From assembly GCA_051362555.1 (NCBI GenBank), contig CM120645.1, positions 22,444,001-22,508,000 of the forward strand: a stretch of DNA of 64,000 bases. Direction: 5' to 3'. Each line of letters opens with the position of its first letter. The stretch's first letter is position 1. The notes under the pieces are model-generated. The model was not told the DNA's origin. It did not search any database and was given only the letters and a program-made list of their open reading frames with translations. Made by a program: the position numbers and the translations under genes. The DNA is from Lingula anatina (Eukaryota > Animalia > Brachiopoda). Positions 4,079 to 56,518 of the stretch are shown piece after piece.

Positions 4079-4268
4079 AGGGCTGTATTCCCAGAGCTTT
4101 TAGATCGATCTATCCCCGCGTGGAGCCTCACTAGATTACTGTCAGATAATCGGGCTTAAATGTCTGTCCCGCCTACTACAAGCTAAAAGGGGGTAGCTAT
4201 TTAGCGTGAACCCCCAGGGAGTTAGGTCGATCTAAAGTAGATCGATGTAATCTCTGGAAATGGGGTCT
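4079..4268. mobile_element. MITE, copy 2 (inverted relative to copy 1)
   Basis: Shared blocks such as cactagattactgtcag, cctgcctacta and agcgtgaacccccagg are reverse complements of segments of 1067-1293. Confidence 0.65.
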
Positions 4269-7200
4269 AAGAGAGGTACTAGTAAACAAATGACCTACCT
4301 ACTGATTTCCTTAGTGTTATATGTGGTACATACATCAGTTGGTGCAAACTTGGACATAATAACGTTATTATGGGGGTCTAGGGAGCTGATGTTACAATTT
4401 TCCCTTTTACTGTTATCAGAGTTCTAAAGAAGGTGCTCTTGGCAGGTGCTCTGAGTGGGGGATAGTTCTGTCAAAAGGTTATTGTTGCAGTTTTAATAGC
4501 ATCACCACAGTCAGACCAGACACCTGATCTTTCTTTTATTTCTTTGATTGTGGAAATCAATAAAAGAATACAGGACCGTGAAGAAAGGCACAAGAAGGCA
4601 TTCTTTTGTATTCTAGACCCACGAGGAAGCCTATCTTGACCTAGTTTCTTATCTTTTTTCAACAGGTTGTTCTTGGCTGTGTATTGTGTACATAATATGA
4701 TTCATAGCTTGTAGTAACAAATGAATTTATAATACTGTTTGTTCCTGTCTATATCATGTGTCTCACCATAATTTCCCTGCCCCTCTTTCAGCAGACAGCT
4801 CTTCAAAATATTTAAATGTTGTTCAGTGGTGTCTGATACATTTGGGCAGCTGGAAACAGACCAAAGCAAGTTTTTCTAATGATGGTGGCGTTTATCAAAC
4901 CAGAATAATAAGACAATGCAACCAAACCTCTGTGAAAATAAAAAAAAATTGAAGAAGATTTGATAAATCTGGTTGATGACATTGACATCTCTATCTGGTA
5001 ATGTACTGTAAAAAAATTCTCTCAACAGTTCTTTTGCTACAAAACAAATCAGACTTTGGGCAGTGGCAACCAATCATTTTTATAAATTTACAAAACTATT
5101 ATATATATTATATATATCTTCTTTGACAATCTGTTTTAAAGAAAAATGACATCTAACTTCAACAAGTTTCTTTCCATTTTAATTTGATTGAAAATGTTAG
5201 CCAGATCCTTCAAACCATATAAATGGTCACTCTGCTCCTCTTAAAGACTGAAAATAATAAGTGCAACCAACCATATCCTGCCACTGCAAAGTTTTTTCCA
5301 TTAAGTACGACCCACTCTTTTAATAACCAAGTTAGCTGACAAGTAAAGGTCAAAAGTTAACGTGGACACATTAGACTGTAACATGCATCCCAAAATCTGG
5401 GTCTCATTTTACAGAGAAATGTGGTTCATTTTTTTTTTCTGACAGAGAATATGCGTGGAATGCAGACATGTTATATCATTGATTGAATGGTGCATACACA
5501 CTTTGTCCCTTTTCCAGTCAATTGTGCATTCAAATAAAACGGTCAACTACACCTTCTACATATAACAATCTTTATTCTATTTTTTTTTCTTTTTTTGTTT
5601 TTTTTTTTTGGGGGGGGGGAGGGGTATACATTCAAATTTTGAAAATTTTAAAAATATCAAATAAAGGAATGGCAAGATATTTTACTTTACACTGCTAAAA
5701 ATATCTCGATTCATTGATAAAAATTTTGCAATACTAACATTAAGCCCAGCAAGTGATTGTAGCAATTGCCAAACTTCCCCATGGCTTTAATGGCTTTATT
5801 TTTGGAACTTTTTCATGCTATATTGCAGTCTCCACAGTCTCCATGGTCACAATGGCCCCTTATATACACCCCAAATTAAATGCTACTTTGTTCAAAAGAT
5901 TGCAATTACAAGTCTATATGTGCTTTGTGATGTAGACCTGAAACTTGCACGTCTGCTGCTCAGTCCCTTTGAATTTGAATCTCCAGTCAAAATCATTACA
6001 TTAGGAGTCTGTTTTTGTAAGTTTATTAAAAGAACATAGTATCTCCATCATTAATGCATTCAATGGTAAGTAGCAAGGTTTTCATTGATGAAAAGAAGAA
6101 GGGAGATTCAAATTTAAAACTATTGGTACCATCATTGAACTTATGTCTGCTTTTGGAGGTTAATGGTGCAGACAAATCACTCCATCAATTACCCATTCAA
6201 AAGTGCTCAGCAAGGTCTTCCAAAGCAGCAAATGGCAAAACCAACCTACAAATTTGTTCCTACTGGTCAATTTAATAAACTTTGGCTGTTTGTTTTGGCA
6301 GGTTAACGGAGTTGAACAAAATCCAGGCCAATAGATTTCATATGACTTGGTGCATAATAAACCATACACAAACAGTAATAATGATCTACCTCTGATATTG
6401 GATTATTCAATACCTTATTATGAAGTTTATTAATAATTAAAAGATTTACTAGTTATGCATGATGATAACTCCTTAAGCCTTTATAATAATTGAGCTACTG
6501 ATGCAATAGTAAATCATTGGGGTAATGACTATATGGAAACACTATGCCTCACACTGTTACATGTACCATAATTTTTTTTTTAACTGAACAAATGTTACAT
6601 ATTAAACTCACAAGTTAATTAAACACTCCATTTAAGTGAACAGCTCCTCCCCAAAGCGACTACTTAACAATTAACAACAAGATGAGGGCAATTTGTAACA
6701 CAAACATTCCTGACAGTTTTACCTGATAGACTGCTTATCTCAACACCAAGGCACACTTAGCTGATAAGCTAATAGTCTCATGCTCTAGCACCGACCTAGG
6801 TACAGTTACAGTATACATGTACCTCTACAAATGAAAGAACTTTTTAAAAGATTTAACAGTTTATGCTACCTTTCTATAGGTTTTACACAAATGTTATCAC
6901 ACATTAGGTAATATACCCTATTTTTTTAAAACCCTAATACTATCAGGATATCAATAGTTTGGTAAAGTAAGATAGAAATATATAGCAACCCGACAGGGAG
7001 AAAAAAATGACTGCTCACATTTTATCGCTTTTACACACAATTTACTCCTGGGAGAATTTTAATTGAAACAGACTAGCTGTGGTAACAATTGGATATTCTT
7101 GCCTACTGCTTACAACAATTTTCCCTTTTGCCTGAATTACCTATAGTCCGGCTCAACTCTATAATTCTGGCTATTATAAGGGTTGCAAGCAAAGTCACCC

Positions 7201-18200: not shown

Positions 18201-20598
18201 CAAATTTTGCTTCCCTTTTATCTCTAAAACTGGCAGAGATATGTCCATAGTTACTATTGAAGTTGAATAGGAAGTCATATACTGGCAATCTTACTGTGTC
18301 CTTAAAATTGACCTTTGACCTACTTTTCACCATAAACTGAACTTTGTAAATTTTGCTTCCCTTTTATCTCCAAAACTGGCAGAGATAGGTCCATAGTTAC
18401 TATTGAAGTTGAATAGGAAGTCATATACTGGCAATCTAAATGTGACCTTAAAATTGACCTTTGACCTACTTTCCACCATGAACTGAACTTGCAAATTTTG
18501 CTTCCCTTCTATCTCCAAAGTTACGCTGTATCAAAAAGTATATATTGGTGGTGAAAGCAAAATGCGCAGTACGGTAATGGATAATAAATTTTGAACTCCA
18601 GAAAAATAAAACATAAGGCTTGGCAAAGCAGACAACTCATGGTCAAAAATGACATTATATCATCCAATTTGAACATCTCGAACTTCAAGACACTTCCCAT
18701 TTCAAGAATTTTGACCAAAATTACCTTTTCTTTATTTTAATTAATTTTTTCTATAGGAAATTTATGGCACATTATGGTAACTCCAAAATTATAACATTTA
18801 GTCCCTTATATCTCCAAAACTGGCAGAGATAGGTCCATAGTTACTATTGAAGTTGAATAGGAAGTCATATACTGGCAATCTTACTGTGACCTTGAAATTG
18901 ACCTTTGACCTACTTTTCACCATGAACTGAACTTTGTAAATTTTGCTTCTATTTTATCTCCAAAACTGGCAGAGATAGGTCCATAGTTACTATTGAAGTT
19001 GAATAGGAAGTCATATACTGGCAATCTTACTGTGACCTTGAAATTGACCTTTGACCTACTTTTCACCATGAACTGAACTTTGCAAATTTTGATTCCCTTT
19101 TATCTCCAAAACTGGCAGAGATAGGTCCATAGTTACTATTAAACTTGAAAAGGAAGTCATATACTGGCAATTTACTGTGACCTTGAAATTGACCTTTGAC
19201 CTATCTTACGATGAATTAACTTTGATTGTACCATTTTAAATTATATATATTTTTTGCATATTTTGAAAATTCTTGTTGATTGCATTTTTACAGCTTGTCA
19301 AGCACAAGACTGGTGGCTGTGTCCCTTACTTTGTGTATGTTGGGGTCTATACGAATGCGCTTGCTCCAGCTGGTGGTACAATATTCGGAGGCGGTATCGC
19401 CTCTCTGATCCTCTAGTTGTTCTTGACATGAAAATGAATCATACTTTAAAACTCATGAGATCAGTATTTTTACTTTAAGGAATTTGATGCCCGTCCAAGC
19501 CGCAAATGGCTCAATGCATTCCTGAAGCCAATAGGCACAGCAGCAGAACCAGCTCAGGATGTGGAAGCAGACACAGACTCTATTGTCACAGGGGGCATAT
19601 TCATTGACACATTTCGTTATTTCCGTCCCAATGAAAAAAGTGCTTTCACGTGTTGGAACACCTCCACAGGAGCCAGACAGACCAACTACGGAACCAGGAT
19701 AGACTACATTCTGGCCAGTGCTGACCTCTGTGAAGGGCTGGTCAGGGACTGTGTAATCCGTCCAGATATAGAGGGAAGTGACCACTGCCCAGTTAAGGCA
19801 GAGTTGACCTGTGATATTGTACAGTCTGCAAAATATCCACCCATTTGTACGAAATTTATGCCAGAATTTTCAGGGAAGCAGCAAAAGCTGTCGGAATTTT
19901 TTAGTAAGTCTGCTAAGGAGCCAAAGCATACTTCAGGGGAATTAGTTAAATCAGAGGCCGCCATTTTCAAAGAAGAATTTAATGGTAATGATAAATCTAC
20001 CATTACAGGCGTCAAACACAAAACAGAAACAAGACTCCTTTCCAAAAGAGCTGCACCTCTGTTAATGAAGCAGACGTCCAAAAAATCCAAATTGGATGAT
20101 AGGAAAGGCAAACAGTCCAGTTTAAAGAATTTTTTTATTTCAAAAACAATTACTCCGGCCAAAGAAAAAGGTTCTCTTGACTCTGGGATTGAAAACAGAA
20201 CTTGCGTTGAAGATGGGATATTTCTTTCCCAGAACAGCGACGGAGAGGGAACTTATTCTTCACAAGAGAGCAATGAGACCTCATCAGTCACATACAGTGA
20301 ATCGATATCACTACACTCCTCACAGGAAAGCAACGAAACTCCATCATCCCAGGAGACGATCAACAAAAGCCAAAACCTAAAAGACGCTTGGAAAACGATG
20401 TTGAAAGGACCACCCAAACCGCCATCTTGCAAGGGGCATAAAGAGCCGTGTGTTCTGAGAACGGTTAAGAAAGAGGGCGTGAATTTTGGCAGACAGTTCT
20501 GGTGTTGTGCCCGGCCCCAGGGACATGCTTCTAACCCACTGGCAAGGTGTGAACACTTTGAATGGCTGCCTAAGAAAAAGAAGGGCAGTTTAAAGTAG
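9080..20598 (+). CDS. APEX2: AP endonuclease 2 (APE2); exons 9080-9194, 9651-9734, 14384-14573, 14878-15024, 15437-15509, 19480-20598
   Basis: EEP motifs MKIITWNINGIR, CFQETK, SGYSGVAT, LDNEGR, NVYVP, ILGDLN, FTCW..GARQTNYGTRIDY, GSDHCP; PIP box QSSLKNFF; C-terminal GRF zinc finger (CKGHKEPC...GRQFWCC...C.HFEW). GT-AG boundaries with compatible phases. Confidence 0.95.
10490..13810 (+). repeat. CpG-rich tandem array (about four units of 300-360 bp built from GGGAGATCGTTCGCG sub-repeats), interrupted at 11470-13435
   Basis: The unit start atcttc(a/g)gcgga(g/a)aat(c/t)gttcgc recurs near 10497, 10850 and 11168, and resumes at about 13435. Confidence 0.8.
11470..13435. mobile_element. Nested non-autonomous element with about 290-bp TIRs and GAG...CTC termini (Sola-like)
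   Basis: 11470 to about 11755 is an imperfect inverted repeat of about 13150-13435 (GAGGGACAGTCGG...CCGACTGTCCCTC). It splits one unit of the host tandem array. TSD unclear, so the superfamily is tentative. Confidence 0.7.
15737..19418 (+). mobile_element. Helentron-associated non-autonomous element (HINE/DINE-1/pearl-like) in APEX2 intron 5
   Basis: 5' subTIR TTGTACCACCAGC with adjacent inverted copy GCTGGCGGTACA; (CCGGCTCCG)n microsatellite; central tandem repeats; 3' subTIR GCTGGTGGTACAA at 19369; hairpin GAGGCGGTATCGCCTC; CTAGTT end. Confidence 0.85.
16457..19205 (+). repeat. Satellite-like array of about 13 monomers of 146 bp in three blocks (7, 3, about 2.7), each block preceded by a spacer of about 295 bp
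   Basis: Monomer starts at 16751, 16897, 17043, 17189, 17335, 17481, 17627; 18076, 18222, 18368; 18812, 18958, 19104. Spacer copies start at about 16457, 17780, 18520. Confidence 0.92.
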
Positions 20599-20626: not shown

Positions 20627-22844
20627 TTTTTATGTACAGACACAGATGTGTCTGTACATATTGCCATCACCTGCGTCTGTCGTCGCCGTCGCCGATCATG
20701 TCGCCGTCGCCGTCGCCGTCGCCGTGCACTTTCAGCGTTAACACCATAAGTGGAAGACAGTTTTACTTTTTGGCTTTATATTTACAGAGCTGACTAATAT
20801 TCATAAAACACAGGTCAAGTTCGAAAATCAGCATGATCGGGCCATTATTGTAGAATTTATGCTGTTTTTTCACTTTTTAGCATATATGCAATACTGTTAA
20901 CACATTTCAAGGAAAACCAATAGGCCTGTTGTCATGAAACTCACAGGAGTAATCAATCTTACTAAAACGCCGATCAAGTTCGAAAATCGGCATGATCGGG
21001 CCACTATTTTAGTAGTTATGCTGTTTTTTTCACTTTTCAGCATATGTGCAACACTGTTAACACATTTCAAGGAAAACCGATAGACCTGTTGTCATGAAAC
21101 TCACAGGAGTAATTTATCTTACTAAAACGCAGGTCAAGTTCGAAAATCAGCATAATCAGGCCATTATTTTATAAGTTGTGCTGTTTTTTCACATTTCCTC
21201 AGATTCAATTCTTAGGCATGTTAACAGTCTCATTATTTAACTAATAAGATTCGTAAAAGTGTTTGTTTGACATTTCCTGCATCTTTACAACATTGTTAGT
21301 TGATTATAAAAAAATGATGGTAAACTTGTTATCATGTATTGTATAATAGAGTTTCAAAAATGGAAATAAACTCATATCATTGCATTTTGTCAGATTCATT
21401 CATTCACTATGTTCAGAAACTCAGAATGGAGGAAATTGGACATTAAACACTGTTCTATTGATATTTTTCCCATCTCATCTATTTTCTTAGTTGATCATAT
21501 ATAAATGGCAGTAAATTGTTAATTTTGTTATATGTTAAAAAATTGTTAAAAATGGAAAAAAACACATTTCAGGACAGTGCTGTCTTGTCTACATTTTGGC
21601 ATTTTCAGGGTGTGACTTTGAAGTTCCTTGGGCCTGAAGACCTTTGCTAAGAACATTTTCTGAATATCCATGATACTAATATTTTATTATTAAAAATTGA
21701 TGGTAATTATCCTGTTAAACATTATGTAATATTGCATCAAAATTTGAAGACACCCCTATTTTGGACACTGCTCCCATGATGACCATTTAAGGAAAACCAT
21801 GTCACTTTGTTCTCAAACTTACAGGAAGAAACATGGGACTTAAATAAAGCTTCAGTGGGCAATGCAGTCTATTTGGTAAATTTTTTTGGCAGTTAAACTG
21901 TTTTTTGTTTTTTTTTTTTTTTGTGAAAATTTAATTTTTCACATATTGGCATTTTCAAGGTGTGACTTAAGAACCTCCACGAGCTTGAAGACCCATGCTA
22001 ATCACATTTTCTTAAAATCCATGATACGGATCTTTTATTATTAAAAACTGATGGTCATTATGCTGTTAAGCATTATGTAATATTGCATTAAAATAGAAGA
22101 AAACACAATTTTGGGTGCTGCTGCCATGATGACCATTATGGGAAAACCATGTTACTTATGATTGTCAAACCTTCAAAAAAGAAACAAAGCACTAAAATGC
22201 AGCCTGAGTTGGAAAAGCAGTCTAATTGGCTTCTTTTTCTGGAAGTTATACATTTTAGTGAAATATTCATTTTTATCATGTTGGCATATTCATTGTCTGA
22301 CTCGAAGCTCCCATGGACATGAAGCCAAATGGTAATCAAATTTTCTACATGTCCATGCTATTTGTAGTCAATAATCAAAAATTGGTGATAATTATTCTGT
22401 AGTTTATTATGTAATGTTACATCAAAATTGACAAAAATCTTTTTGCACTGCTACTACAAACATCATGAAAAGAAAACTGTGTTACTTATTATTATTTTCA
22501 ACTTACGAGTATGATTTGTAGGATTGGCATGCAGTTCAAATAAGAAAGCCAGCTCAAATGGGTTATCATTTATTATTGAATTTAAGCAGTTTTATGTGAA
22601 ATTTTCATTTTTCTTATTCTGGCATTTTCAAAGTGTGAACTTAAACTCCCATGGGCCTGAAGCCTTACGCTTGTTACACATTTCACTTACATTGGTATTA
22701 CCTGTTGAGCATAATTAAAATTTGATGTTGAATTTGCAGTTACACATAATGTACTTTTGCATCAGAATTGACAGTAGCCTGTTTTGTGCATTGTTATTGT
22801 CTGCTTTTTGTCTGTACATTTGACAGCTTTGCTGCCTTGTTTTT
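20627..22844 (+). mobile_element. Second Helentron-like (HINE) element, immediately downstream of the APEX2 stop
   Basis: 5' TTTTTATGTACAGACA plus inverted TGTCTGTACAT; (TCGCCG)n microsatellite; about 160-bp repeats near 20811, 20971, 21130; diverged about 350-bp repeats; 3' subTIR TGTCTGTACAT at 22809, small hairpin CAGCTTTGCTG and CTTGTTTT end. Confidence 0.75.
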
Positions 22845-31153: not shown

Positions 31154-31229
<76 letters not shown>

Positions 31230-34200
31230 CAACAACAACAAAGAATCTTTATTTTGAAGAAGTGTTTGATTTGGGGAATTTCCAATAAGAAAATGAATAT
31301 ACAGCCATCAAATCAAATCTCTTTTAGGGAAGAAATAGCTTTCACCATAATTTATTACTCTGACTCAGTCCACTGCAGCAGTATCACATACTATCAATAT
31401 CAATTATCTATCTCTTACATTACAATTGCTGTATATAAATTGTAAGTTGAATACAAAAAAGATGGATAGTAATCATCATCATATCAACAATATCAATTTT
31501 AATTTTCATAGTATGACTATGTGTAACTGACAAGTAGCTATTTTTAGACATAGTAGTGTCTTGAACATAATTGTATAATCGGTGTTGATTGTATTTAGTT
31601 TTTGCCGGCACGTGTTTGTTAGACAAGTCAGATTCTCGCAACGAGTTTCACGTTGATTCAGATGAAAGTTGTTACCAGTTGTTTCCAGTTGAAAGTTGAT
31701 GAAAGTTGATGTAAGTTGACATAAGTTGATGTTAGACAATAAACAGTACCATTTGTTACCAGTTGATGTTATATATCGTTGACAATTGAATAAAATTGGA
31801 CTGACACCCGCAACAGTGAAACTCGAGAGATCTAAAGGTCAAAGGTCAAAATGGACGTGCAACAAAAAATTGAAGACATAGAAACTGCCAGTTTATTTAG
31901 CAGTTTGAGCACGAGCTCAACTGAAGCTCGCTTGAAAGCGAAGGCAAAACGGATGGCCATTGAGGCAGAATTGGCATCTTTTGAAGTGAAGAAACATTTG
32001 GACGAACAGGAATTGAAATTGAAACAACAAAGGGAGAAACTCAAGTTGGACACTGAAAGAGCAAAATTGTTAGCAGAGGAAACTGCGTATGCTGAAGCTG
32101 AGATGGAGACCAGTGCCCCAATTTCATCTACGAAACTGGACATTCAGGTAAATTCCACCAACTTGACTCAAAACCAGAGTAGTCATGATGTGATTCATCA
32201 TTTAGTGAACTCTATACAAATTCCTAAAGTTGAAATAGACAAATTTGACGGAGATCCTCTTCAGTATTGGAATTTTATCAAAACTTTTGAAAATAGTGTG
32301 GAGAAAGAAACTGTGGACAGCGGCGCAAGATTAATTCGTTTGCTTCATTATACCAGTGGAAAAGCTCATGGTGTAATTCAGTGTTGTGCTGTAATGAACC
32401 CTGAAGATGGATATAAAAAGGCTAAAGCATTGCTTAAGGAAAGATTTGGTTCAGCCTACACTATTACAGAGACATGGGTTAAGAAAATCACGACAGGCCC
32501 AGCCATAAAGGCAAATGATGTTACAAAATTGAGGGATTATGCCGACGAGTTAAGAACATGTGCTGAAACGCTTGAAACAATGGGAAATTCCTCAGAGTTG
32601 AGCACACAAAGCTCACTGGTCAAAATCATTGAACGTCTCCCTGGTTATTTGCAGCACAAATGGAAACAAGAAGTACGTAAGATAAGAAAGGAAGAAAGGT
32701 GCCCAGATATTAAAGATGTCACTGCATTTGTTGTTGAAAATGCAGAAATAGCAAATGATCCAGTGTATGGTGGCCTAGCACATGTGAAAAGGAGTGACAG
32801 TCGCAGTGATTCACAGAGGCGACCCAACAACCGATGGAGTTACAGTATTACAGCTACCAGTTCACAGCCTAATGGTGACACCAGTTCACAGCCTAATGGT
32901 GACACAAGAAAATCTATTCAGTCACCATGCATTAAGTGTGGCAGCAGTCATTCATTATTTGGGTGTACAGAATTCAAAGCCATGAAATTGCCTGAGAGAC
33001 TCAAATTTGCCAATGACAACAAACTGTGTTACAACTGTTTAAAGCCAGGACATTTCTCTGAGATGTGTAGATTACAACGTACGTGCTCAGTGCAAGGGTG
33101 CAATCAAAAACACACTAAATTCTTGCACCAGGTGAAGCCAACTGTTACAAGGGAACCAGTTCATGAAGATTTATCTCACATTCAGACAGGGCTTAACACT
33201 TCTCTCAGTGCTGTAAATGAAGTTTCGTATGGAGCTCATGGGACCAGAAAGGAAAGTGGTATGCGAATTGCCTTGCCAATAGTACCAGTGAAAGTGAAAG
33301 TTCCAGGAAAAGCACAGTTTGTGCACACCTATGCGTTGCTGGACTCGGGATCCACCAGTACGTTTTGCTCAGAAGAGTTGAAGCAGTCTATTGGTGCACA
33401 GGGTGAAAATACAGTGTTAAAGCTTACGACCTTAGAAAAGGAACAAAGTGTCTCAGAGACTGTAGTGATCAGTTTACAGATTTCTGATTTAGAAGACAAA
33501 AATGTGATTGATTTGCCAGTTGTGTATACAAGACCATCATTACCTGTAAACATGGAAAACATGGGTCGTGCAGAGGACATCAGAAAGTGGAGTCACTTAC
33601 AAGATGTGAATTTTCCAGAAATAGATCACATGAATGCCAAGGTGAGCATAATAATTGGACAAGACAATCCAGAGGTGCTTATGCCTATTGATGTGAAGAG
33701 AGGTCAAAGTCCAAATGAGCCATATGCGACAAAAACTGTGTTGGGCTGGACATTAAATGGACCGCTTGGTGGCAAGCGTAGACATGTTGCCACGGCAACA
33801 TTTATTCAGGCAGATCGTGAGCTGAATGAGCAATTGGAGCAGTTTTGGAAAATAGAAGGCCATGGAACATTGATATCTGATAAAAAGGGTTTATCAATTG
33901 AAGACAAGCGGGTCCTCGCTTTATGGGAAGATAAGATTCAACATGACGAGCATTACAGTTTGCCGATACCATTTAAAGACAGGCAGCCTCATTTTCCGCC
34001 AAACAAGCAGATGGCCGAGCAACGCCTAGACAGCTTAAAGCGAAGATTGTCACATGATCCCAACTTACATCAAGCGTACACAGAATTCATGGAGGACTTA
34101 ATTGACAAAGGTTATGCAGAACAAGTCAGCCCTGAGGAAGTTGACAAAGAAGACGGCAGGGTATGGTACCTACCCCACCATAATGTTGTGAACCTCAAAA

Positions 34201-37200
34201 AACCAGACAAAGTAAGGGTAGTATTTGACTGTAAAGCTAGCCATCAGGGTGTCTCATTGAATAGTCAAGTTCTACAGGGGCCAGACATTGTGAATTCTTT
34301 ATTAGGCGTATTGTTACGCTTTAGACAGCACCCCATAGCCATCATGTCTGACATAGAAGCCATGTATCATCAAGTGAAGGTACCAGAAGTGCAGAGAGAT
34401 TCTCTTCGTTTTTTATGGTGGCCTAAAGGAGATCTGGAAGGAGAACAGAAAGTTTATCGAATGACAGTACATTTGTTTGGTGGCAGATGGAGTCCCAGTT
34501 GCTGTAATTTTGCATTGCAACGCACAGCAGAAGACAACAAAGGTCATTACGACACAGAAGTAGTCAATACTGTTTTACAGAATTTCTATGTAGATGACTG
34601 TTTAAAGTCAGTAATGAGTGAAACAGAGGCAATCACCATGGTCAGTCAATTACAGAGTCTGCTGCAAACAGGAGGTTTTCACCTGACGAAGTGGATTAGC
34701 AACAGCAGACAGGTGTTATCCAAGATACCAGACATAGACAAAGCCAAGCCTATTAAGAATCTTGATTTGAATTTACAGGCCTTGCCGACAGAGCGTGCTC
34801 TTGGTGTTTGCTGGGACATAGAAGTGGACAGCTTCACCTATAAAATGGATCTTGAGAAGAAACCACTGACCAAGAGAGGCCTTTTAAGTGTCATCAGTTC
34901 TATTTATGACCCCCTGGGCTTTATTTCTCCCTTCACTATCAGAGCGAAGAAGATGTTACAAGATTTAACACGTGATAAGATAGGTTGGGATGAAGCTGTG
35001 CCTTATAAAACCCAGGTAGAGTGGTCAGGTTGGAAGAACAGCTTGCCCAAGATGAAAGAAATGAAAGTACCAAGATGTGTACAGCCAGTACAGCCTGAGA
35101 ATATTGCCAGCATTCAGTTACACCATTTTTCTGATGCGTCTACCATGGCATATGGTGTTGTAAGTTACCTCCGTGTACAGGACATCTCAGGTCAGATACA
35201 TACTTCATTGTTGATGTCAAAGGCTCGGTTGGCACCGATCAAGCAGCTTACAATTCCGCGCCTCGAGCTTACAGCAGCTACTATGGCAGTTAGATTAGAT
35301 TACATGATACGACAGGAACTCACTTTTCCTGTGGACAGTTCAATATTTTGGACAGACAGCACGTGTACTTTGAGTTACATTCAAAGTGAAGATAAACGAT
35401 TTCAAACATACGTTGAAAACAGAGTCTCTGTCATCAGAGAAGGTTCAATTCCGTCACAGTGGCACTACATCGATTCAAAGAGGAACCCAGCTGACGATTG
35501 CACAAGGGGACTCACTGCCCATGAAATGGTTAACAGTGTCAGATGGATTGAAGGACCAGAATTTCTTAAGCAGAGTGAGTGCCACTGGCCAGAAACTCCA
35601 GATGTTAAGGGAGTGTCAGATGAAGATAAAGAGTTAAAGAGACCCAAGACATGTCTAGCACAAAGAAGTGAGTCAGTACAAGAATCAGTGATAGATAAGA
35701 TTCTAAAACGCCGATCTTCATGGAAAAAGCTGAAGAAAGATGTTGCTGTGATACTACGCTTCAAACAGTGGTTAATAGCAAGACATAGAAGAGAAAAGGT
35801 GAATGTACCCACAGGTCCACTTTCAGTGGAAGAAACAGAAAAGGCAGAGTTAGAAATCTTGAAGTATATCCAAGGGCAACACTTTGGGAAAGAGCTCTCA
35901 GAAATTAATCGAGCTGCGAACAGTCAGAGTGGTGTTAAACGTGCAAGTAAGTTGTTTAAGCTTGCACCAGTGATGCATTCTTCAGGTGTGTTAGTAGTTG
36001 GTGGTAGATTGAACAATTCAGCTATTTCAGAAGGGATAAAAAATCCAGTGATTTTACCACAGCACCATGTTGTAGATTTGATTATTGACGAGCAACACAA
36101 AGCCTTAGGACATAGTGGACGGGAATATGTGCTTTCTGAATTGAGACAGAAGTATTGGATTATAGGAGCGAGGAAATCCATTCGCAGAGTGATCAGCAAG
36201 TGTGTCAAATGTAAGCGAAACAATGCATTACCATGTCAGCAAAGAATGGCTGATTTGCCAACAGCTAGAGTTACACCCAATGAACCATGTTTTACTTATG
36301 TGGGTGTGGACTATTTTGGTCCATTTTTGATTAAACGTGGAAGGTCAGAGGTTAAGAGGTATGGGTGTTTATTTTCATGTTTAGCATCAAGAGCAGTGCA
36401 TATTGAAATAGCGCAATCACTAGATACTTCATCATTTATTAATGCCCTGCAGCGTTTCATCAGTAGACGTGGAAAACCCAAGAAAATATTTTCAGACAAT
36501 GGAACTAACTTTGTTGGTGCAGAGCGTGAATTGAAGGCAGCTGTCACAGAATGGAATCAGAGTAAGATACATGATTATTTACACCAGAACCACATAGATT
36601 GGCATTTTAACCCACCTAGTGCTTCACATATGGGTGGTGTATGGGAAAGATCCATCAGAACTGTTAGAAAAGTATTAAGAGGTGTTGTGACAGAACAGGT
36701 TTTAGATGATGAGAATCTTGTCACTTTAATGTGTATTGTGGAAGCAATTGTGAATGGACGTCCGTTGACACCGGTGTCCAGTGATCCCAATGATTTGGAA
36801 GCGTTGACCCCAAACCACTTGTTATTGTTACGTTCTGGGTCTGTGCTCCCACCAGGTGATTTTGACAAGACAGACACATATAGCAAACGCAGATGGAGGC
36901 AGGTTCAGTATTTGGCAAACATTTTCTGGTGCAGGTGGATAAAAGAATACTTACCTACCTTGCAAAGTCGTCAAAAGTGGTTGGAGCCAAAGCGAAATTT
37001 GAATATTGGTGATATTGTGTTAGTGATTGATGAAGATGTTCCTAGAAATGTGTGGCCAATTGCTAGAGTGATAAATACTTACCCAGGAAAGGATGGACTT
37101 GTTCGCACAGTTCAGATTAAGACTAGGAATTCTATATTGATGCGACCAATACATAAACTGTGCTTGTTAGAGGAAGCGCAATAACTGAACAATCATTATA

Positions 37201-40195
37201 GTGTGTAACTGTAATTTTAAGGGGAATCCCCGTCAAGGAGCCATCAGTTGACTTGAGTGAACTTTTTATGTTTAGACTGGCGCATTGTATAAACACTGGA
37301 CTGGATTAATTTCAGTGTTATGGACTGTTAAATGTATAGAATCTTTAAAATTAAGACTATTTTCACATTTTGTTTAAAAGGAAAGGTTTTGTTTTCATGT
37401 GAATGGCAGGTTGACATATGTGTGAGAGAGATAGATATGCTTACAATGTTGGTTTATGTTATGTTCAGAAATTGCTCATAAACTTTGATGCATAATGCTT
37501 ATATACATACGATATTGGTTATTGAGTTTTAAAATTGTTTATTAAAGAAGGTAATTAAGGTAAAGTTAAATTGACAAAATTGTTTTGATATATGTATGTA
37601 TGTAGTATGGTAATGGATGTTAAGTTTTGGATTTATGTCAGAGTTTTGATATTTAATGATAGTTTAAGTAAATTGTGGGATTCACAATTTAAGGGAGCCA
37701 TGTAACTGACAAGTAGCTATTTTTAGACATAGTAGTGTCTTGAACATAATTGTATAATCGGTGTTGATTGTATTTAGTTTTTGCCGGCACGTGTTTGTTA
37801 GACAAGTCAGATTCTCGCAACGAGTTTCACGTTGATTCAGATGAAAGTTGTTACCAGTTGTTTCCAGTTGAAAGTTGATGAAAGTTGATGTAAGTTGACA
37901 TAAGTTGATGTTAGACAATAAACAGTACCATTTGTTACCAGTTGATGTTATATATCGTTGACAATTGAATAAAATTGGACTGACACCCGCAACACTATGA
38001 GTGTCACCAAAGGCAAATAAATGCAATTAGTAGAAAAAAACAATGAATAGCTATACATGATGACAGATTAATAGAGTTTACCCCCCCCCCCCAAAAAAAA
38101 AAAAAGAAAAAAAAAAAAAAGAAAGAAAGAAATTTAGTAAATTGAAGATTCCTAGACAACACTTATCCCAGCATGTGTCATATTGTTTAAATACTGTTGC
38201 TACGTCAATATTGATCTTTAAATTAGGAGTCAGGCTGTTTTAACAGTTTAGCAAAGTTGAAAGCAGCCAGGTCATGCTGATTCTTTCTTAATTTCAAAAA
38301 TGAAAGTAACAAAGATGCATGTTGTTTATCACCTGATTACTTGTTATTTCCTTTCATAGTTTTTGCTTTACTTTCAATTATAATAATTATAACAAAATAA
38401 ACACTCTAAATCCATTTAAAGAAAGGGAAAGACAGACCGAAAATCATGACACCATTACTTACGGAGAATTTGTAGTCTCTTCCAAAGAGCTGCAAACATT
38501 TATCCAGTGCATTATTGTTCTGAAAAGACAAGATTTATAACACAATGTGTATGGCATCATAAATCACCACAAGGCTATGATGTCTTGTGTATCAAATGCT
38601 GAATTACAGTCTTGAACATACCATACCAGTAAGCTCCAGGCCAGTCATTTCCCCCCTGGCAAGTAAAATAGTATATACTATGCTTGAGTATGACATCCCT
38701 TTGGTGTGTTAGAAATAAATAAATGCATCAACTAAATTAAGAACTTGTAGGTATCCTAATTTTCATGAGGAATTGTGCGGGTTCCTTTTTAATTAAAAAA
38801 GATCAAACTGTCCTTATTAAGAATAAAAAAATAGCAATAGGACTTCTAGTTTTTCAGACATGCTTTTTCAGGCTAGTAATACTTGAAATATACCAGCATG
38901 AACATGGATGACCGGTAATAAAAAATGGCAGTATTGGTATTCACTGTCACCTCTTCCTACTACGGCAATGTGCCATAAACAGATATAAATCATATAATAA
39001 CAATCATCTACACGCGTGTGTTTACACACGCACACACACACACACAATGCAGCTCAAACACTCTGAACTCATTTTTGTTAGTTTAACCAGCAGCCTACAA
39101 ATATAGAAAAATGAACATTTATCACTTATCTATAGTATCACAAACTATTATGACAGCTATTACATATCAATCTTATCTCTGACCCATACATAGCTTTGTA
39201 CATTAATATTTCAATAATATACTACACACTATTCTATTCCATTCCATTATATCTAAAGTGCCTCTAATGCAGACACTGAATATCAAGTCCTGCTGAGATT
39301 ACCATGCATCCGTAAATTTCAAGAAATAAAAATCAATATCTATAAGTATTTTTAGCACAAAAATGTAATTAGAGAATATTTTTATATGTGTTTCCAAAAA
39401 TAAATTCAAGATCAAGTAATCTTGCTGTAAAATTCCAAGGGAAAATAACCAATCTTCAACTTTCAGAGTAAGATACGGTCTAGCCCATTGAGTGCAGCAC
39501 TAAGTGTTATATATACTGGTATATCATGTACTAACCTATGCATTAAATGACCAATACAAAAGTCTTAATATGTAAATAAATTAGTATTATCAATTTTCAA
39601 AAACTATGAAAAAAGACTTTGAGTCATTTTTTACATCTACAAGTGTTGTATTTCATAAAAGAATTCAGATAAAAATCATGCATGTAAAAATGCTTGCCTG
39701 TGTCGTGTTGGCCTTTACATACTAAACTTAATTCATATAACCATACTCATATAAAATGTTCAGCATCGTCCCCTATGTCATAAGGTCTAAATAGCCGGCT
39801 TACACCGTATCATATGGATGCTGGCAAAGGTTCAGAAACTGTTCCAGAATAACTCTTTACTAGTATCTGTACTATTTTATAACCTTTACCCTCATTTTGT
39901 GGAAATTAAAACTGTGTCATTCAACTTCGACTTAGCCATATGTTTCTTTTCTGTGTCAAGAACATTTCAGGACCAGTAAAACAAATTACATCTGTTTCAA
40001 AAAACAAGAAACACCTGTCCTATTTAATACAACTCTGCTACAGTTTCTTTGAGCAATCAACGACAACATGGGTATTTTTCTCAATCACAGCCCTACCATT
40101 GGATCATTATCCTTTGCTCGATAAACGTTCTTCGACATGTGGTCGATCAGTCGTTTAATGTCGTCAAAACCGACCTCTTCTCTTAGCTCAGTCAT
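23850..40195 (-). CDS. MTMR14: Myotubularin-related protein 14 (Jumpy) phosphoinositide phosphatase, multi-exon (e.g. 40097-40195, 38463-38519, 31051-31148, 30264-30372, about 29871-29946, about 27005-27167, last exon 23850 to about 24057)
   Basis: Exons translate to YRAKD, CLQLFGRDY, GDLCSHYPAKLVLLEYE, ARCRGRFVAPVIL, CRSATISG, DLMVEKKK, PYPGCEFF, the catalytic CX5R motif VHCISGWDRT, YDWYLFGHNLPDRL, and the C-terminal GGLTSLLDHFAEKVGIR, all matching MTMR14. Confidence 0.95.
28703..28747. repeat. (TA)n microsatellite
   Basis: Pure TA run just after an MTMR14 splice donor. Confidence 0.95.
30511..30679. mobile_element. 169-bp MITE with CAGGGGCG termini and 5-bp TSD (TAATT)
   Basis: TAATT|CAGGGGCGTA...TCCGCCCCTG|TAATT; internal GGAAGAC/GTCTTCC repeats. 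Confidence 0.65.
31157..31241. repeat. (AAT)n(AAC)n compound microsatellite abutting an MTMR14 splice acceptor
   Basis: Direct observation. Confidence 0.95.
31522..31815 (+). repeat. 5' LTR
   Basis: TGTAAC...CAACA; identical by eye to 37701-37994; internal about 10-bp AAGTTGATG repeats and two AATAAA. Confidence 0.96.
31851..37184 (+). CDS. BEL/Pao Gag-Pol polyprotein (1777 aa)
   Basis: Gag (FDGDPLQYWNF), three Cys-His knuckles, protease ALLDSGS, RT (RVVFDC, DIEAMYHQV, FYVDD), RNase H (HHFSDAS, TIPRLEL, WTDS, NPAD), integrase (H..GH..C..C, VDYFGP, SDNGTNF, GGVWER), BEL-type C-terminus (GKDGLVR...RPIHKL). Confidence 0.97.
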   Translation: MDVQQKIEDIETASLFSSLSTSSTEARLKAKAKRMAIEAELASFEVKKHLDEQELKLKQQREKLKLDTERAKLLAEETAYAEAEMETSAPISSTKLDIQVNSTNLTQNQSSHDVIHHLVNSIQIPKVEIDKFDGDPLQYWNFIKTFENSVEKETVDSGARLIRLLHYTSGKAHGVIQCCAVMNPEDGYKKAKALLKERFGSAYTITETWVKKITTGPAIKANDVTKLRDYADELRTCAETLETMGNSSELSTQSSLVKIIERLPGYLQHKWKQEVRKIRKEERCPDIKDVTAFVVENAEIANDPVYGGLAHVKRSDSRSDSQRRPNNRWSYSITATSSQPNGDTSSQPNGDTRKSIQSPCIKCGSSHSLFGCTEFKAMKLPERLKFANDNKLCYNCLKPGHFSEMCRLQRTCSVQGCNQKHTKFLHQVKPTVTREPVHEDLSHIQTGLNTSLSAVNEVSYGAHGTRKESGMRIALPIVPVKVKVPGKAQFVHTYALLDSGSTSTFCSEELKQSIGAQGENTVLKLTTLEKEQSVSETVVISLQISDLEDKNVIDLPVVYTRPSLPVNMENMGRAEDIRKWSHLQDVNFPEIDHMNAKVSIIIGQDNPEVLMPIDVKRGQSPNEPYATKTVLGWTLNGPLGGKRRHVATATFIQADRELNEQLEQFWKIEGHGTLISDKKGLSIEDKRVLALWEDKIQHDEHYSLPIPFKDRQPHFPPNKQMAEQRLDSLKRRLSHDPNLHQAYTEFMEDLIDKGYAEQVSPEEVDKEDGRVWYLPHHNVVNLKKPDKVRVVFDCKASHQGVSLNSQVLQGPDIVNSLLGVLLRFRQHPIAIMSDIEAMYHQVKVPEVQRDSLRFLWWPKGDLEGEQKVYRMTVHLFGGRWSPSCCNFALQRTAEDNKGHYDTEVVNTVLQNFYVDDCLKSVMSETEAITMVSQLQSLLQTGGFHLTKWISNSRQVLSKIPDIDKAKPIKNLDLNLQALPTERALGVCWDIEVDSFTYKMDLEKKPLTKRGLLSVISSIYDPLGFISPFTIRAKKMLQDLTRDKIGWDEAVPYKTQVEWSGWKNSLPKMKEMKVPRCVQPVQPENIASIQLHHFSDASTMAYGVVSYLRVQDISGQIHTSLLMSKARLAPIKQLTIPRLELTAATMAVRLDYMIRQELTFPVDSSIFWTDSTCTLSYIQSEDKRFQTYVENRVSVIREGSIPSQWHYIDSKRNPADDCTRGLTAHEMVNSVRWIEGPEFLKQSECHWPETPDVKGVSDEDKELKRPKTCLAQRSESVQESVIDKILKRRSSWKKLKKDVAVILRFKQWLIARHRREKVNVPTGPLSVEETEKAELEILKYIQGQHFGKELSEINRAANSQSGVKRASKLFKLAPVMHSSGVLVVGGRLNNSAISEGIKNPVILPQHHVVDLIIDEQHKALGHSGREYVLSELRQKYWIIGARKSIRRVISKCVKCKRNNALPCQQRMADLPTARVTPNEPCFTYVGVDYFGPFLIKRGRSEVKRYGCLFSCLASRAVHIEIAQSLDTSSFINALQRFISRRGKPKKIFSDNGTNFVGAERELKAAVTEWNQSKIHDYLHQNHIDWHFNPPSASHMGGVWERSIRTVRKVLRGVVTEQVLDDENLVTLMCIVEAIVNGRPLTPVSSDPNDLEALTPNHLLLLRSGSVLPPGDFDKTDTYSKRRWRQVQYLANIFWCRWIKEYLPTLQSRQKWLEPKRNLNIGDIVLVIDEDVPRNVWPIARVINTYPGKDGLVRTVQIKTRNSILMRPIHKLCLLEEAQ
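37701..37994 (+). repeat. 3' LTR
   Basis: Direct repeat of 31522-31815. Confidence 0.96.
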
Positions 40196-51124: not shown

Positions 51125-52903
51125 ATGGAGGAACACGGAGAAACGTGTTTGGAACAAACCCATTTAGTAAGTACGGATCCTTGTGTTTGGCTACAATGTG
51201 TAATAAGCCTATATCTATTGCACGGGATTTGATATAAATGACTGATTGACGCAGATTGACTGATTGTCGCAGTATAATAGATAAGGTGCGCCAAATAGAT
51301 AGTAGAAACATGCTCACTGTGTCTTTTGTACTCACTGTCGTCCTTATAGATAGAAATATGGCGAACGCATTGCTCCTATCAGCTTTTGGAATACCCCAGG
51401 TTTGTCCCTCGTTAAATTCGTTCAGTCGGTGGAAGCTGTTCGAATCTTATTCAGTCATTTGTAATTCCAAATTTATAAACAAGCTACAAAATTAACAATT
51501 CTCTCCAAGGTACATAAAGAAGACATTCCCGTGAAAAAAGTTTACTCGGGAGCAGATTATGATGTACTATTTGAGCCTGATGTGTATCTTAGCGATCAAT
51601 ATAGCGACTTCGTGACGTCATCATCCTCAGAGATCACAGCAATCATGAACCGTCTTCACGAAGTATATAGCACAGGTACGTCGTTTTCTTTCAGACGCTT
51701 ATGAAGCAAGTGCTCATGTCAAATCATTGCCGCCAAACTCAACCAAATGCCAACAGTATGTCAAATAATGTAATATAAATCATGTCCAGATAGTGTATTT
51801 GGAAAACTAAGAATGCAAAAAGTTCTTGGAAACTTCGACTTTCTAAATTACAATGAAATGCGCCCTTCGACCAATTTATTCCAATTCATAACTAAACCAG
51901 TGCAAATGCTTTATAAATACATTACATAATTTTAATTTTAAGTTAAAACTTCTGCACACAGAGATCGTGGTTAGTTTTCAAATAATACACGGTGTGTTTT
52001 CCCTCCAGGAAACATCAAGGGACAGAGACTACTGGACATTGGAACAGGACCTTCTCTTGTCAACTTGATAAGTGCTTCTAGATGCTTTGAAGAAATTTAT
52101 CTCTCAGATTTCTCCACCGCTAACCGGAATGCTCTGAAAAAATGGCAGAAGAAAGAGGAAAGAGAAACTTGGAGCTGGGAGTCTTTCTTTCGTCATGTGG
52201 CGAAGTTAGAGGGAAACGAGTGAGTGTAATTGTATATCTGAGATCTTTCTTGGATATCATGTCAGCAACTGATTTGAAGAATGTGATCTATGTCTGGTTT
52301 GAGGAAATGACACTACCAACAGGCCATTCGCCTTATCTTTAAAGTACGGTCACAGCCAAATGAGATTCAAGTAATACTAATTTAGCATCACTATATGCAT
52401 GTTTAAAGCAATGGCAGCATGCTTTATAAAACTGTAGAAGTGAACAGTTTTTTGTTCACATTTTCAGAGACAGTTGGAACTCGCTACAAGATGAATTCCG
52501 AGATAAAACAAAAGCCGTATATTTCTGCGATGTGAACAACGCCAACCCGTTAAGTCCCGTGGATACGGCCCCTTTTGATACAATCACCACCAGCTATTGC
52601 TTGGAGACTGCGTGTCAGAACGAGGGGGAGTATCGGCAAGCAATGAAAAACGTTGCGTCGCTTCTGAAACCAAGGGGGTATTTCATTATGCTGGCAGGGT
52701 TGAAGGAAACTTATTATCTGGTTGGAGGTAATAACTGGCGAACGCTGCCCCTGCAAGAGGAACAATACAGAGATGCTTTGCAAAAGGCAGATCTGGAAGT
52801 TGTTTCGTGGCATCCTATTAAACGCCAAGAGAATGTTTTGGATATTGAGTCCGACTATGTCGGTTGCTTTATTGTCGTTGCGAGAAAGAAGAATGGTCCT
52901 TAA
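51125..52903 (+). CDS. NNMT/INMT/PNMT-family small-molecule methyltransferase, copy 1; exons 51125-51166, 51510-51675, 52009-52219, 52468-52903
   Basis: FEPDVYL..Y, GQRLLDIGTGP SAM motif, EEIYLSDF..ANR, CDV..NPL, CLETAC, LLKPRG, YYLVG, FIVVARK. Phases are consistent. Confidence 0.9.
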
Positions 52904-54244: not shown

Positions 54245-56518
54245 ATGGAGGGACGCAGGGGTGTGCGTTTGGGAGAAACAAATTCGGTAAGTTCCGTTCT
54301 CTACAGAATTGTCATTAAAGAGATCACTGAAGAGAAACTCTTCTGTAATTTAGATATACTTTTACGCATATTTATATAAATAATACGACTTTTTCGAAGT
54401 AAAGTGTTATGTTAAGTAATGTCTATATGCTTGTCAAACTACAATTTCCTCATTACATATTTGCGCGTAAGTTAAAATAAACGTAAATACATAATAAACG
54501 TAAATCTAATTATGGTGGGAGTAAAAAAGATTTGTAACGACACAACAACTTCGGAAAATGTTCCATAATGTGCAGAAAACTTTTATAACATGTAAGTACA
54601 GAAACCATCACACATTGTGACATAAAGTGTATTGTGTCGCCGAGACGTTGGACGGATAATAACTACAAGTTTATTATAATCATTATTTTAAAGGCATATG
54701 AAAAAGACCATCCCGTGAAGAAATTTCACTCGGGGGCAGATTATGATAAGTTGTTTCAGCCAGAAGTGTACCTCAATAGCCTCTATCGTGACGTCATCGA
54801 GGGAGGGAAGACAGCCACGGACATTACCGAAATTATAGACTACTTACACAAAATCTACAGTACAGGTACCAGTAACTTAACACTTCTCGTAAAAATAAGC
54901 ATTAGATAAACTGTGGAAAGGGCAATCATTAAATTCACTAAAAACGTGTGAAGGGCCCTGTATAATATTGTTCCCCCCTTTTTTTTTTTAATCTTGACCT
55001 GGAGTTAAATGTAAAGCGAGCGTGGATTTACAGTTATGTACATAAAGCACTTCTACTTATTTCTCTTACAACCAAAATAAAGTCAACATACCAAGAGGTT
55101 AGCCAAATTAACCTGTCGTTCCGACCCCCCCCCCCTCCTCCGAAAAAATTCCTTTATAACTGTTCCTATCTGAAATTTTGGGCGTATTGTCCAGTGAGAA
55201 AGGGTGACTTGCTCACACTCACTCAAACTCGCGTAAATTAGATCTTTTTTTTTTTTTACAATTTCAGGAAACATCAAGGGGCAGAGACTCTTGGACGTTG
55301 GCACTGGACCTTCTCTTGTCAACCTGATTAGTGCTTCTAGATGTTTTGAAGAAATTTATCTCTCAGATTTCTCCACCGCTAACAGGGATGCTCTGGAAAA
55401 ATGGTGGAAAAAAGAGGAGAGTGAAGCTTGGAGCTGGGAATATTTCTTTCGTTATGTGGCAAAGTTAGAGGGAAACGAGTATGTAGATCTTTTTCGACTC
55501 GCAAAACCATATGCATGAAGTTACCTTGCAGAGAAGTGTAAAGGATTTGTTTTGTTATTTGGTTCTTTAGGGGACAGCAGAATGAACTTCTTGGGTGGAC
55601 CCCTTTAAACATGTTTGAACGTCACGTGTGTCTGTGCAAATATGTCAACGTCATTAAATAGCTTCGTTAAGTGGTTATGAGAGAAAAACTTCACATAGAA
55701 AATTAAGGACAGGTGACTTAACTTTTCTTTTCTCTTGTGTTAGCAGGTGTGTCGAAAAGTAAAATTTGGGATTCGCCAGTAGGCATGTCAAAGCATTCCA
55801 TGGCATTTCATGATTTACCAATTTTCATTACCTCATGAATGTGTATATGTGTGTGTGCGTGTGTGTTGATTTCTGTTTAAAACTAGTACCCAAGGAAAAG
55901 TTTGAAGAAGTAAAAGGTATAAGATTAGATTGGAAAACCAATTTTAAAACAACCAAACTACGATGTACTTACCTCGCTTTTGTAGTAGAACGATACACTG
56001 TTTTATTTTGTTCACCTATCGTTGTTATGTGTCTGTATTTAAAAGTAAAGAAATAAGGTTTTGGTTTGTATTACTTCAGAGACGGGTGGGATTCACTGCA
56101 AGATGAATTCCGAAGAAAATTAAAAGACATCTATTTCTGCGACGTGAACAACCGAAACCCATTGAGCCCTTTGGAAACGGATCCCTTTGATACCATAACG
56201 AGCGGCTTCTGCCTGGAGTATGCGTGTTTGAGTGAGAGTACATATCGACAGGCAATGAAAAATGTGACTTCATTACTGAAGTCAGGCGGTTATTTCATAA
56301 TGCATGGAGGCATCAATGAATCTTTCTATCAAGTGGGGACTAAGAGGTGGGGTGGTCTGGCCATGCAAGAGAACCAGTTTAGAGAAGCGATGACAGAAGC
56401 TGGTTTGGAGATCAGGGCCTGGTACCAGATCAAGCGCCCAGATTGTTATCCAGATTCCGAGTCCGATTACGAAGGCTGCTTCATTGTCGTTGCAGTAAAA
56501 AATCCCTTAGCAAAATGA
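54245..56518 (+). CDS. NNMT/INMT/PNMT-family methyltransferase, copy 2; exons 54245-54286, 54694-54865, 55268-55478, 56080-56518
   Basis: Same exon structure and motifs as copy 1; 42-nt first coding exon ends at GTAAGT. Confidence 0.9.

Follow-up and report, generated by a model that had tools for sequence, protein, structure and literature searches.

An intact BEL/Pao retrotransposon of Lingula anatina with an LTR-complementary primer-binding site, a candidate for self-priming

The element and its surroundings

The stretch of Lingula anatina DNA that was analyzed, 64,000 nt in all and referred to here as the window, contains an intact BEL/Pao retrotransposon at positions 31522-37994, which was recently inserted. 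Its main parts are as follows.

31517..31521, + strand: left target-site duplication CTATG
31522..31815, + strand: 5' LTR, 294 nt, TG...CA, identical with the 3' LTR
31851..37184, + strand: single gag-pol open reading frame (1782 codons over 31836-37184, with the first ATG at 31851)
37691..37700, + strand: polypurine tract (PPT) AAGGGAGCCA, adjoining the 3' LTR
37701..37994, + strand: 3' LTR, 294 nt, TG...CA, with the second copy of the candidate primer arm at 37821-37830
37995..37999, + strand: right target-site duplication CTATG

Because an identical 3' LTR is present and CTATG stands at both sides, the LTR boundary is fixed independently of the match, described below, at the primer-binding site (PBS). 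The open reading frame encodes DUF1759, three Cys-His motifs, an aspartic protease, a reverse transcriptase (RT) with the motif YVDD, a Pao peptidase A17/RNase H region, an integrase, and DUF5641. Pfam matches above the cut-off were obtained for Peptidase_A17 (1.9e-50), DUF5641 (1e-32), and DUF1759 (2.5e-10); the matches to RVT_1, rve, and the protease were weaker, and the order fits PR-RT-RH-IN. The motifs of RT, RNase H, and integrase are intact, those of RNase H being located at residues 1098, 1142, 1172, and 1217. Within gag, a short tandem duplication (32852-32905) carries TSSQPNGD twice.

Several features by which BEL/Pao elements are recognized were found together: LTRs in the range of 0.2-1.2 kb with a target-site duplication, a Pao-type pol order, and a PPT of about 10 nt. 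Membership in BEL/Pao rests on the protein; the 18-nt PBS for tRNA-Arg or tRNA-Gly described for this group is absent. Protein relatives with about 50-55% identity come from echinoderms, a mollusc, a brachiopod, cnidarians, and a priapulid, while the closest protein relatives share 60-69% identity. In a quick tree of 31 rows, the element groups with five ENA proteins (support 99) among elements of marine animals. No further copies were found within the 64,000-nt window.

Elsewhere in the window, an open reading frame at 19459-20598 has exonuclease-endonuclease-phosphatase and GRF zinc-finger matches, and we take it to be APE2-like. Two paralogous exons of the NNMT/PNMT/TEMT methyltransferase type are located at 52430-52903 and 56057-56518, and a dispersed repeat with a period of ~340 nt occupies 21567-22638. 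A (TAA)n/(CAA)n microsatellite at 31155-31240 is situated 280 nt before the insertion.

Complementarity between the primer-binding site and the LTR

The features of the LTR and leader that bear on priming are listed below.

31592..31597, + strand: TATA-like TATTTA, candidate promoter element with a putative function
31628..31634, + strand: Inr-like TCAGATT, candidate start-site region
31630..31637, + strand: arm of a predicted second helix, pairing with 31827-31833 and not beyond chance
31642..31651, + strand: candidate self-primer arm CGAGTTTCAC
31652..31655, + strand: GTTG, predicted to pair with the U5 end at 31811-31814, with A31815 bulged
31738..31743, + strand: candidate poly(A) signal AATAAA, following the arm by 87 nt
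31789..31794, + strand: another AATAAA, following the arm by 138 nt
31816..31825, + strand: candidate PBS GTGAAACTCG, at offset 0 from the LTR end and without TGG

Directly after the 5' LTR, positions 31816-31833 read GTGAAACTCGAGAGATCT. The original prediction held that the first 10 nt of this PBS are the exact reverse complement of 31642-31651, and this was confirmed, with all coordinates correct and an offset of 0 from the CA end. In line with a further claim, that TGG is absent after the LTR, none was found within 35 nt of the LTR end; the nearest is that of the start codon (31851), at a distance of 36 nt. A chance expectation of about 3e-4 had been given for the match, and dinucleotide shuffles of the LTR gave a value close to it, with 19/50,000 (3.8e-4) matching at offset 0. 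The same match at offsets 0-3 was obtained in 43/50,000 dinucleotide shuffles, and a duplex of equal stability in 1/2000 shuffles. In a looser search, with offsets 0-5 and spliced junctions permitted, 9 of 5676 interior decoy 24-mers did as well.

The core pairs between arm and PBS have a predicted probability of 0.8-1.0 for five trial start sites, and the helix is predicted at 0.83-0.9 in a 1000-nt context. Folding of the 5' leader, which had been proposed as a check, revealed that the whole 226-nt region is no stabler than shuffles (z 0.27). No intron junction within the element's own LTR yields a PBS match, no Rfam match was obtained over 31300-32200, and no tRNA gene was found within the 64,000-nt window.

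Two additional pairings had been proposed to extend the duplex. The AGATTCTC:GAGATCT helix is present but is not beyond chance, with 299/1000 shuffles as good, and it was rejected (Fisher p 0.30) as a supported or conserved part of the structure. The GTTG:CAAC pairing is predicted at 0.96-0.98, but a counterpart directly after the arm was not seen in the eight relatives checked. The TATA-like motif proposed at 31574 was not supported: most host copies carry a change in it (31576 T>G at a depth of 918.9/1314.2 in sample X1 and 830.6/830.6 in X6). The TATTTA hexamer of 31592 is also found upstream of the arm in two relatives, L016 and L034, and is located 38 nt from A31630; the usual distance from TATA to start is about 30 nt, which is shorter.

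The element family is present in several host samples. Over 31522-31850 of the host copies, none of 18 substitution sites (p about 0.06) and none of 10 indels among those listed (p about 0.012) fall in the two arms; for such conservation, the start site and the integrase end are another possible cause. In one X1 contig, both arms are retained and the intervening 144 nt are skipped, and a contig of run X10 diverges directly after 31657. Length variation among host copies was observed at tandem AAAGGTC units directly after the PBS (31834-31847), the number of which differs, and at short GTTGA-type repeats in the LTR between the arms (31660-31780). Four raw RNA runs contained only 17-82 reads each, with no start pile-up and no joints. 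In run X18, depth was zero in the bins flanking the element, and nearly all first mates mapped to the minus strand, consistent with transcription in the sense direction under the usual stranded protocol. The copy is intact and the family is transcribed, so the question of priming is testable on natural material.

Complements with different letters in related elements

Related elements were sought in metagenomes and bacterial assemblies, yielding 24 related loci, nine of which have a readable LTR and leader: L002, L010, L011, L012, L015, L016, L034, L035, and L036. These nine represent five sources, owing to shared assemblies (L011/L012/L036, L015/L034, and L016/L035). They are 38-55% identical to the element in RT/RNase H and are scattered over the quick tree. 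Eight loci without a 5' region (L001, L005-L009, L013, and L039) were left out. None of seven incomplete loci (L003, L004, L014, L017, L018, L037, and L038) rose above chance, their best matches being 7-10 nt among 11-49 candidate ends; an 18-nt match of L038 was rejected as a contig-end artefact, and L018 apparently no longer has the end of its 5' LTR or the PBS. No relatives were found in the viral contigs searched. Animal BEL/Pao contigs, some of them complete, were encountered as contamination within bacterial metagenome-assembled genomes (L010-L018 and L034-L039). In L004, a contig without an LTR, a stretch at ~214-224 in the leader of this fish-like relative has 9 letters in common with the element's PBS.

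The original prediction had set as its key test a complement between PBS and LTR that is kept with altered letters, and all nine readable relatives pass it: each has its own 11-13-nt complement starting 0-5 nt after the LTR end. The match of L002 needs offsets 0-5 and is missed by a search at offsets 0-3. The complement is contiguous in L010 (11 nt) and L002 (12 nt). In the other seven relatives it exists only once a predicted intron is taken out, the donor being GT and the acceptor a pyrimidine-rich AG; across the resulting junction it spans 11 nt in L011, L012, L015, L016, L034, and L036 and 13 nt in L035. The GT-AG introns within these LTRs, whose splicing is a prediction, would be 137-1022 nt long.

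Paired LTRs fix the ends of L010, L011, and L012, for which 0/6076, 12/5476, and 6/4876 decoys, respectively, did as well, and an LTR pair bounds the end of L036 (27/5600 decoys). The remaining five LTR ends are the best match among 6-32 candidates, with corrected p values of 0.002 for L002, 0.015 for L015, 0.075 for L016, 0.028 for L034, and 0.006 for L035; runner-up matches were 5-6 nt in these relatives, L035 excepted. The relatives with open ends are weaker evidence because the unrestricted search gave one false 12-nt match, its first pick in L036, which fell inside the LTR and was rejected.

Pairing of a PBS with the LTR of another element never exceeded 9 nt outside the sister pair L011 and L012 (10-11 nt), and the L036 row and column of this cross matrix rest on the false LTR end. 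The match between the sisters is probably made by a second shared donor. The GTGAGT donor of L011 and L012 has three bases that differ between the two on both sides of the pairing, with CAC/GTG in one and TAA/TTA in the other. The anchored PBS cores have 4-6 of 10 letters in common with the PBS of the element, and pairing is kept with varied letters, six of columns 3-10 having three or four pair types. In nine of the 10 elements, the PBS starts with GT. None of the 10 primer arms ends in CCA, and nine have the 3' end ...AC. For six of the seven predicted-spliced relatives, the nearest strong TATA-like motif precedes the arm by 93-240 nt or was not found at all. AATAAA starts 1 nt after the arm in L011 and L012. 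Neither AATAAA nor ATTAAA was found after the arm in L002, L010, L015, and L034, which leaves strand transfer of these four unexplained.

The comparison with relatives also brought out similarities in the 3' UTR that are separate from the PBS.

37227..37242, + strand: 16-nt motif of the 3' UTR, shared without any change by the distant relative L016 (2973-2988)

This motif is situated 43-67 nt after the pol stop in two elements whose RT/RNase H is only ~44% alike. Its end is like that of the PPT, and it is preceded by a PPT-like U-tract and AAGGGG. We presume that it resembles the 3' end of eukaryotic tRNA-Asp and that L016 2915-2990 resembles a decayed whole tRNA; these likenesses were unconfirmed by Rfam, ARAGORN, and two viral-contig scans. 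As a self-encoded primer the motif was rejected, its longest complement in the element being 7 nt and falling inside gag. The 3' UTRs of L016 (3117-3134) and L035 (~5370-5387) share an identical 18-mer that starts with TGG, ~75-105 nt before the PPT, which we take to resemble a PBS for tRNA-His, at a location where none would be expected. L016 has, in addition, an extra 239-codon open reading frame between LTR and gag (4231-4947), with no Pfam match above the cut-off.

A proposed priming route and its alternatives

In Tf1, self-priming has been demonstrated (PMC7175516, PMC4600332, PMC10085805, PMC5341516). According to the accessible parts of these sources, pairing involves its first 11 bases, and the RNase H cut falls between bases 11 and 12 (PMC7175516, PMC4600332), the primer complex being a three-duplex pretzel (PMC10085805). 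Like Tf1, Tf2, Tj1, and Tf1/sushi, the element described here has no tRNA PBS, and a PBS of ~11 nt by the 5' LTR complements LTR RNA. Unlike Tf1/sushi, which are Ty3/gypsy chromoviruses whose integrase bears a chromodomain, it has Pao domains and a C-terminal DUF5641, and no chromodomain family was detected at E<=0.001. Its proposed working is like Tf1 self-priming, yet it is not a Tf1/sushi member. In contrast to Tf1, its arm is predicted to lie at a distance of 12-20 nt from the transcript start, and at a far greater distance in the predicted-spliced relatives. The three-duplex pretzel, in which the LTR downstream of the primer is paired with both flanks of the PBS, is a further difference, as it was not found in the element: the downstream flank was equaled by 149/200 shuffles and the upstream flank by 18/200. 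Over the 10 elements, only two of 20 flank tests fell under 10/200 shuffles.

We consider it likely that the element is primed by its own RNA in a Tf1-like manner, cut at or near C31651. This reading of the letters is supported by the exact complement at offset 0, the lack of TGG, and the nine of nine relatives with complements of their own. The claim that the PBS is complementary to the LTR stands, but the primer need not consist, as the accompanying claim had it, of the first bases of the transcript, the TATA-like motifs of six predicted-spliced relatives being 93-240 nt upstream or not found. With these motifs so far upstream, a distant upstream start site would not speak against self-priming.

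Under this proposal, transcription would start near 31623-31630, upstream of the arm, and the arm would anneal to the PBS of the same or a partner genomic RNA. A cut in the RNA, at C31651/G31652 or directly before, would give a 3' end in ...AC; the enzyme responsible would probably be the RNase H of the element, in the manner of Tf1. The 3' end of the arm is opposite the first base after the LTR, and a primer ending there would be needed because the CA of the LTR must be copied. RT would extend the primer, copying from A31815 back to the cut, and the DNA would jump to the 3' end of the RNA via the portion of R after the cut, which would be usable for transfer because both AATAAA signals are downstream. 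The plus strand would be primed by the PPT, as usual. In the relatives, LTR introns could persist if the primer is discarded and not copied, provided that the 3' copy stays unspliced. More broadly, we lean slightly toward the view that a broad animal BEL/Pao branch abandoned tRNA priming independently of Tf1, with an internal ...AC primer cut without a pretzel, many of these primers being splice-built and the present element being the intronless form.

A primer from the element's own RNA might also be made otherwise, as a short LTR transcript (promoter-proximal, of the small-RNA type, or released by a host nuclease) that ends near C31651 and acts in trans. Such an RNA would suit the failure to find the pretzel that guides RNase H in Tf1, the presence of the arm in every LTR copy, and a start near 31630, which would place the 3' end ~22 nt into the transcript. 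However, the arm of seven relatives exists only after predicted splicing, which is not expected of promoter-proximal RNAs, and the common ...AC end (9/10) suggests one specific cut; we regard this route as unlikely.

It also seems improbable that the helix serves structure or regulation, for example by closing a domain of the 5' copy alone in which poly(A) signals are hidden, or by assisting packaging, with priming by something else. The helix could indeed form in the 5' copy only and encloses both AATAAA signals, and in L011 and L012 AATAAA is 1 nt past the arm. Against this, the predicted accessibility of both AATAAA signals is about equal in the 5' and 3' contexts, which lends no support to occlusion of poly(A) signals by the helix. 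Nor does a structural role give a reason why all 10 elements have the helix starting within 0-5 nt of the LTR end, and an alternative PBS is absent, the nearest TGG being 36 nt away.

Priming by a host tRNA half or another host small RNA, with the LTR match secondary, is more doubtful still. The last six bases of the arm presumably resemble the anticodon loop of tRNA-Glu(UUC), a point in favor of such a primer. Position 32 of tRNAs is nearly always a pyrimidine; a tRNA-Glu half would need G there, so the match ends at 6 nt. Furthermore, the ten PBS cores would need ten different host fragments, while each core matches its own LTR by 10-13 nt. Half-tRNA priming does exist in copia lineages, as described in the accessible parts of one source (PMC6317226). 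That the PBS is a decayed one and its complementarity to the LTR accidental is very improbable, since, even with a p value of about 4e-4 to 2e-3 for a single 10-mer match and very many stretches of DNA examined, the identical LTRs and intact open reading frame point to recent successful replication and the repetition of the pattern in nine relatives largely refutes it.

Self-priming of the element by its own RNA, as favored here, is predicted at the same evidence level as for the plant Tcn1 (gypsy) and TAR/Houba/Osr-1 (copia), where it was predicted from complementarity alone (PMC6317226). Unlike the present element, these belong to other superfamilies and hosts, and the accessible parts of that source describe no splice-built primer for them. 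The ICTV describes Belpaoviridae as having an 18-nt PBS complementary to tRNA-Arg or tRNA-Gly, with a replication that is poorly understood (PMC8742986). The element agrees with that description in LTR size, gag-pol organization, PR-RT-RH-IN order, and PPT (PMC8742986); in contrast, it and its nine relatives have no 18-nt tRNA PBS. Self-priming of BEL/Pao was not found in the literature searched, coverage of which was partial, so an earlier description is possible. In their accessible parts, four BEL/Pao surveys do not mention PBS or tRNA (PMC554778, PMC3118150, PMC6238403, PMC8556966), and no BEL/Pao self-priming was found in those of PMC3601003, PMC8220671, PMC3286476, PMC6934838, and PMC11042837.

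For Tf2, start-site choice is a host control point, according to the accessible part of one report (PMC5341516). If the proposal holds for BEL/Pao, self-priming would enter a third LTR superfamily, and the description of Belpaoviridae as tRNA-primed would be corrected. It would also explain why PBS searches based on tRNAs miss such elements, and we infer that tRNA fragments directed at the PBS would no longer control the elements. With a primer that is internal or built by splicing, the question would arise of how RT/RNase H finds the cut without the Tf1 fold, and start-site choice and splicing would become possible points of control by the host.
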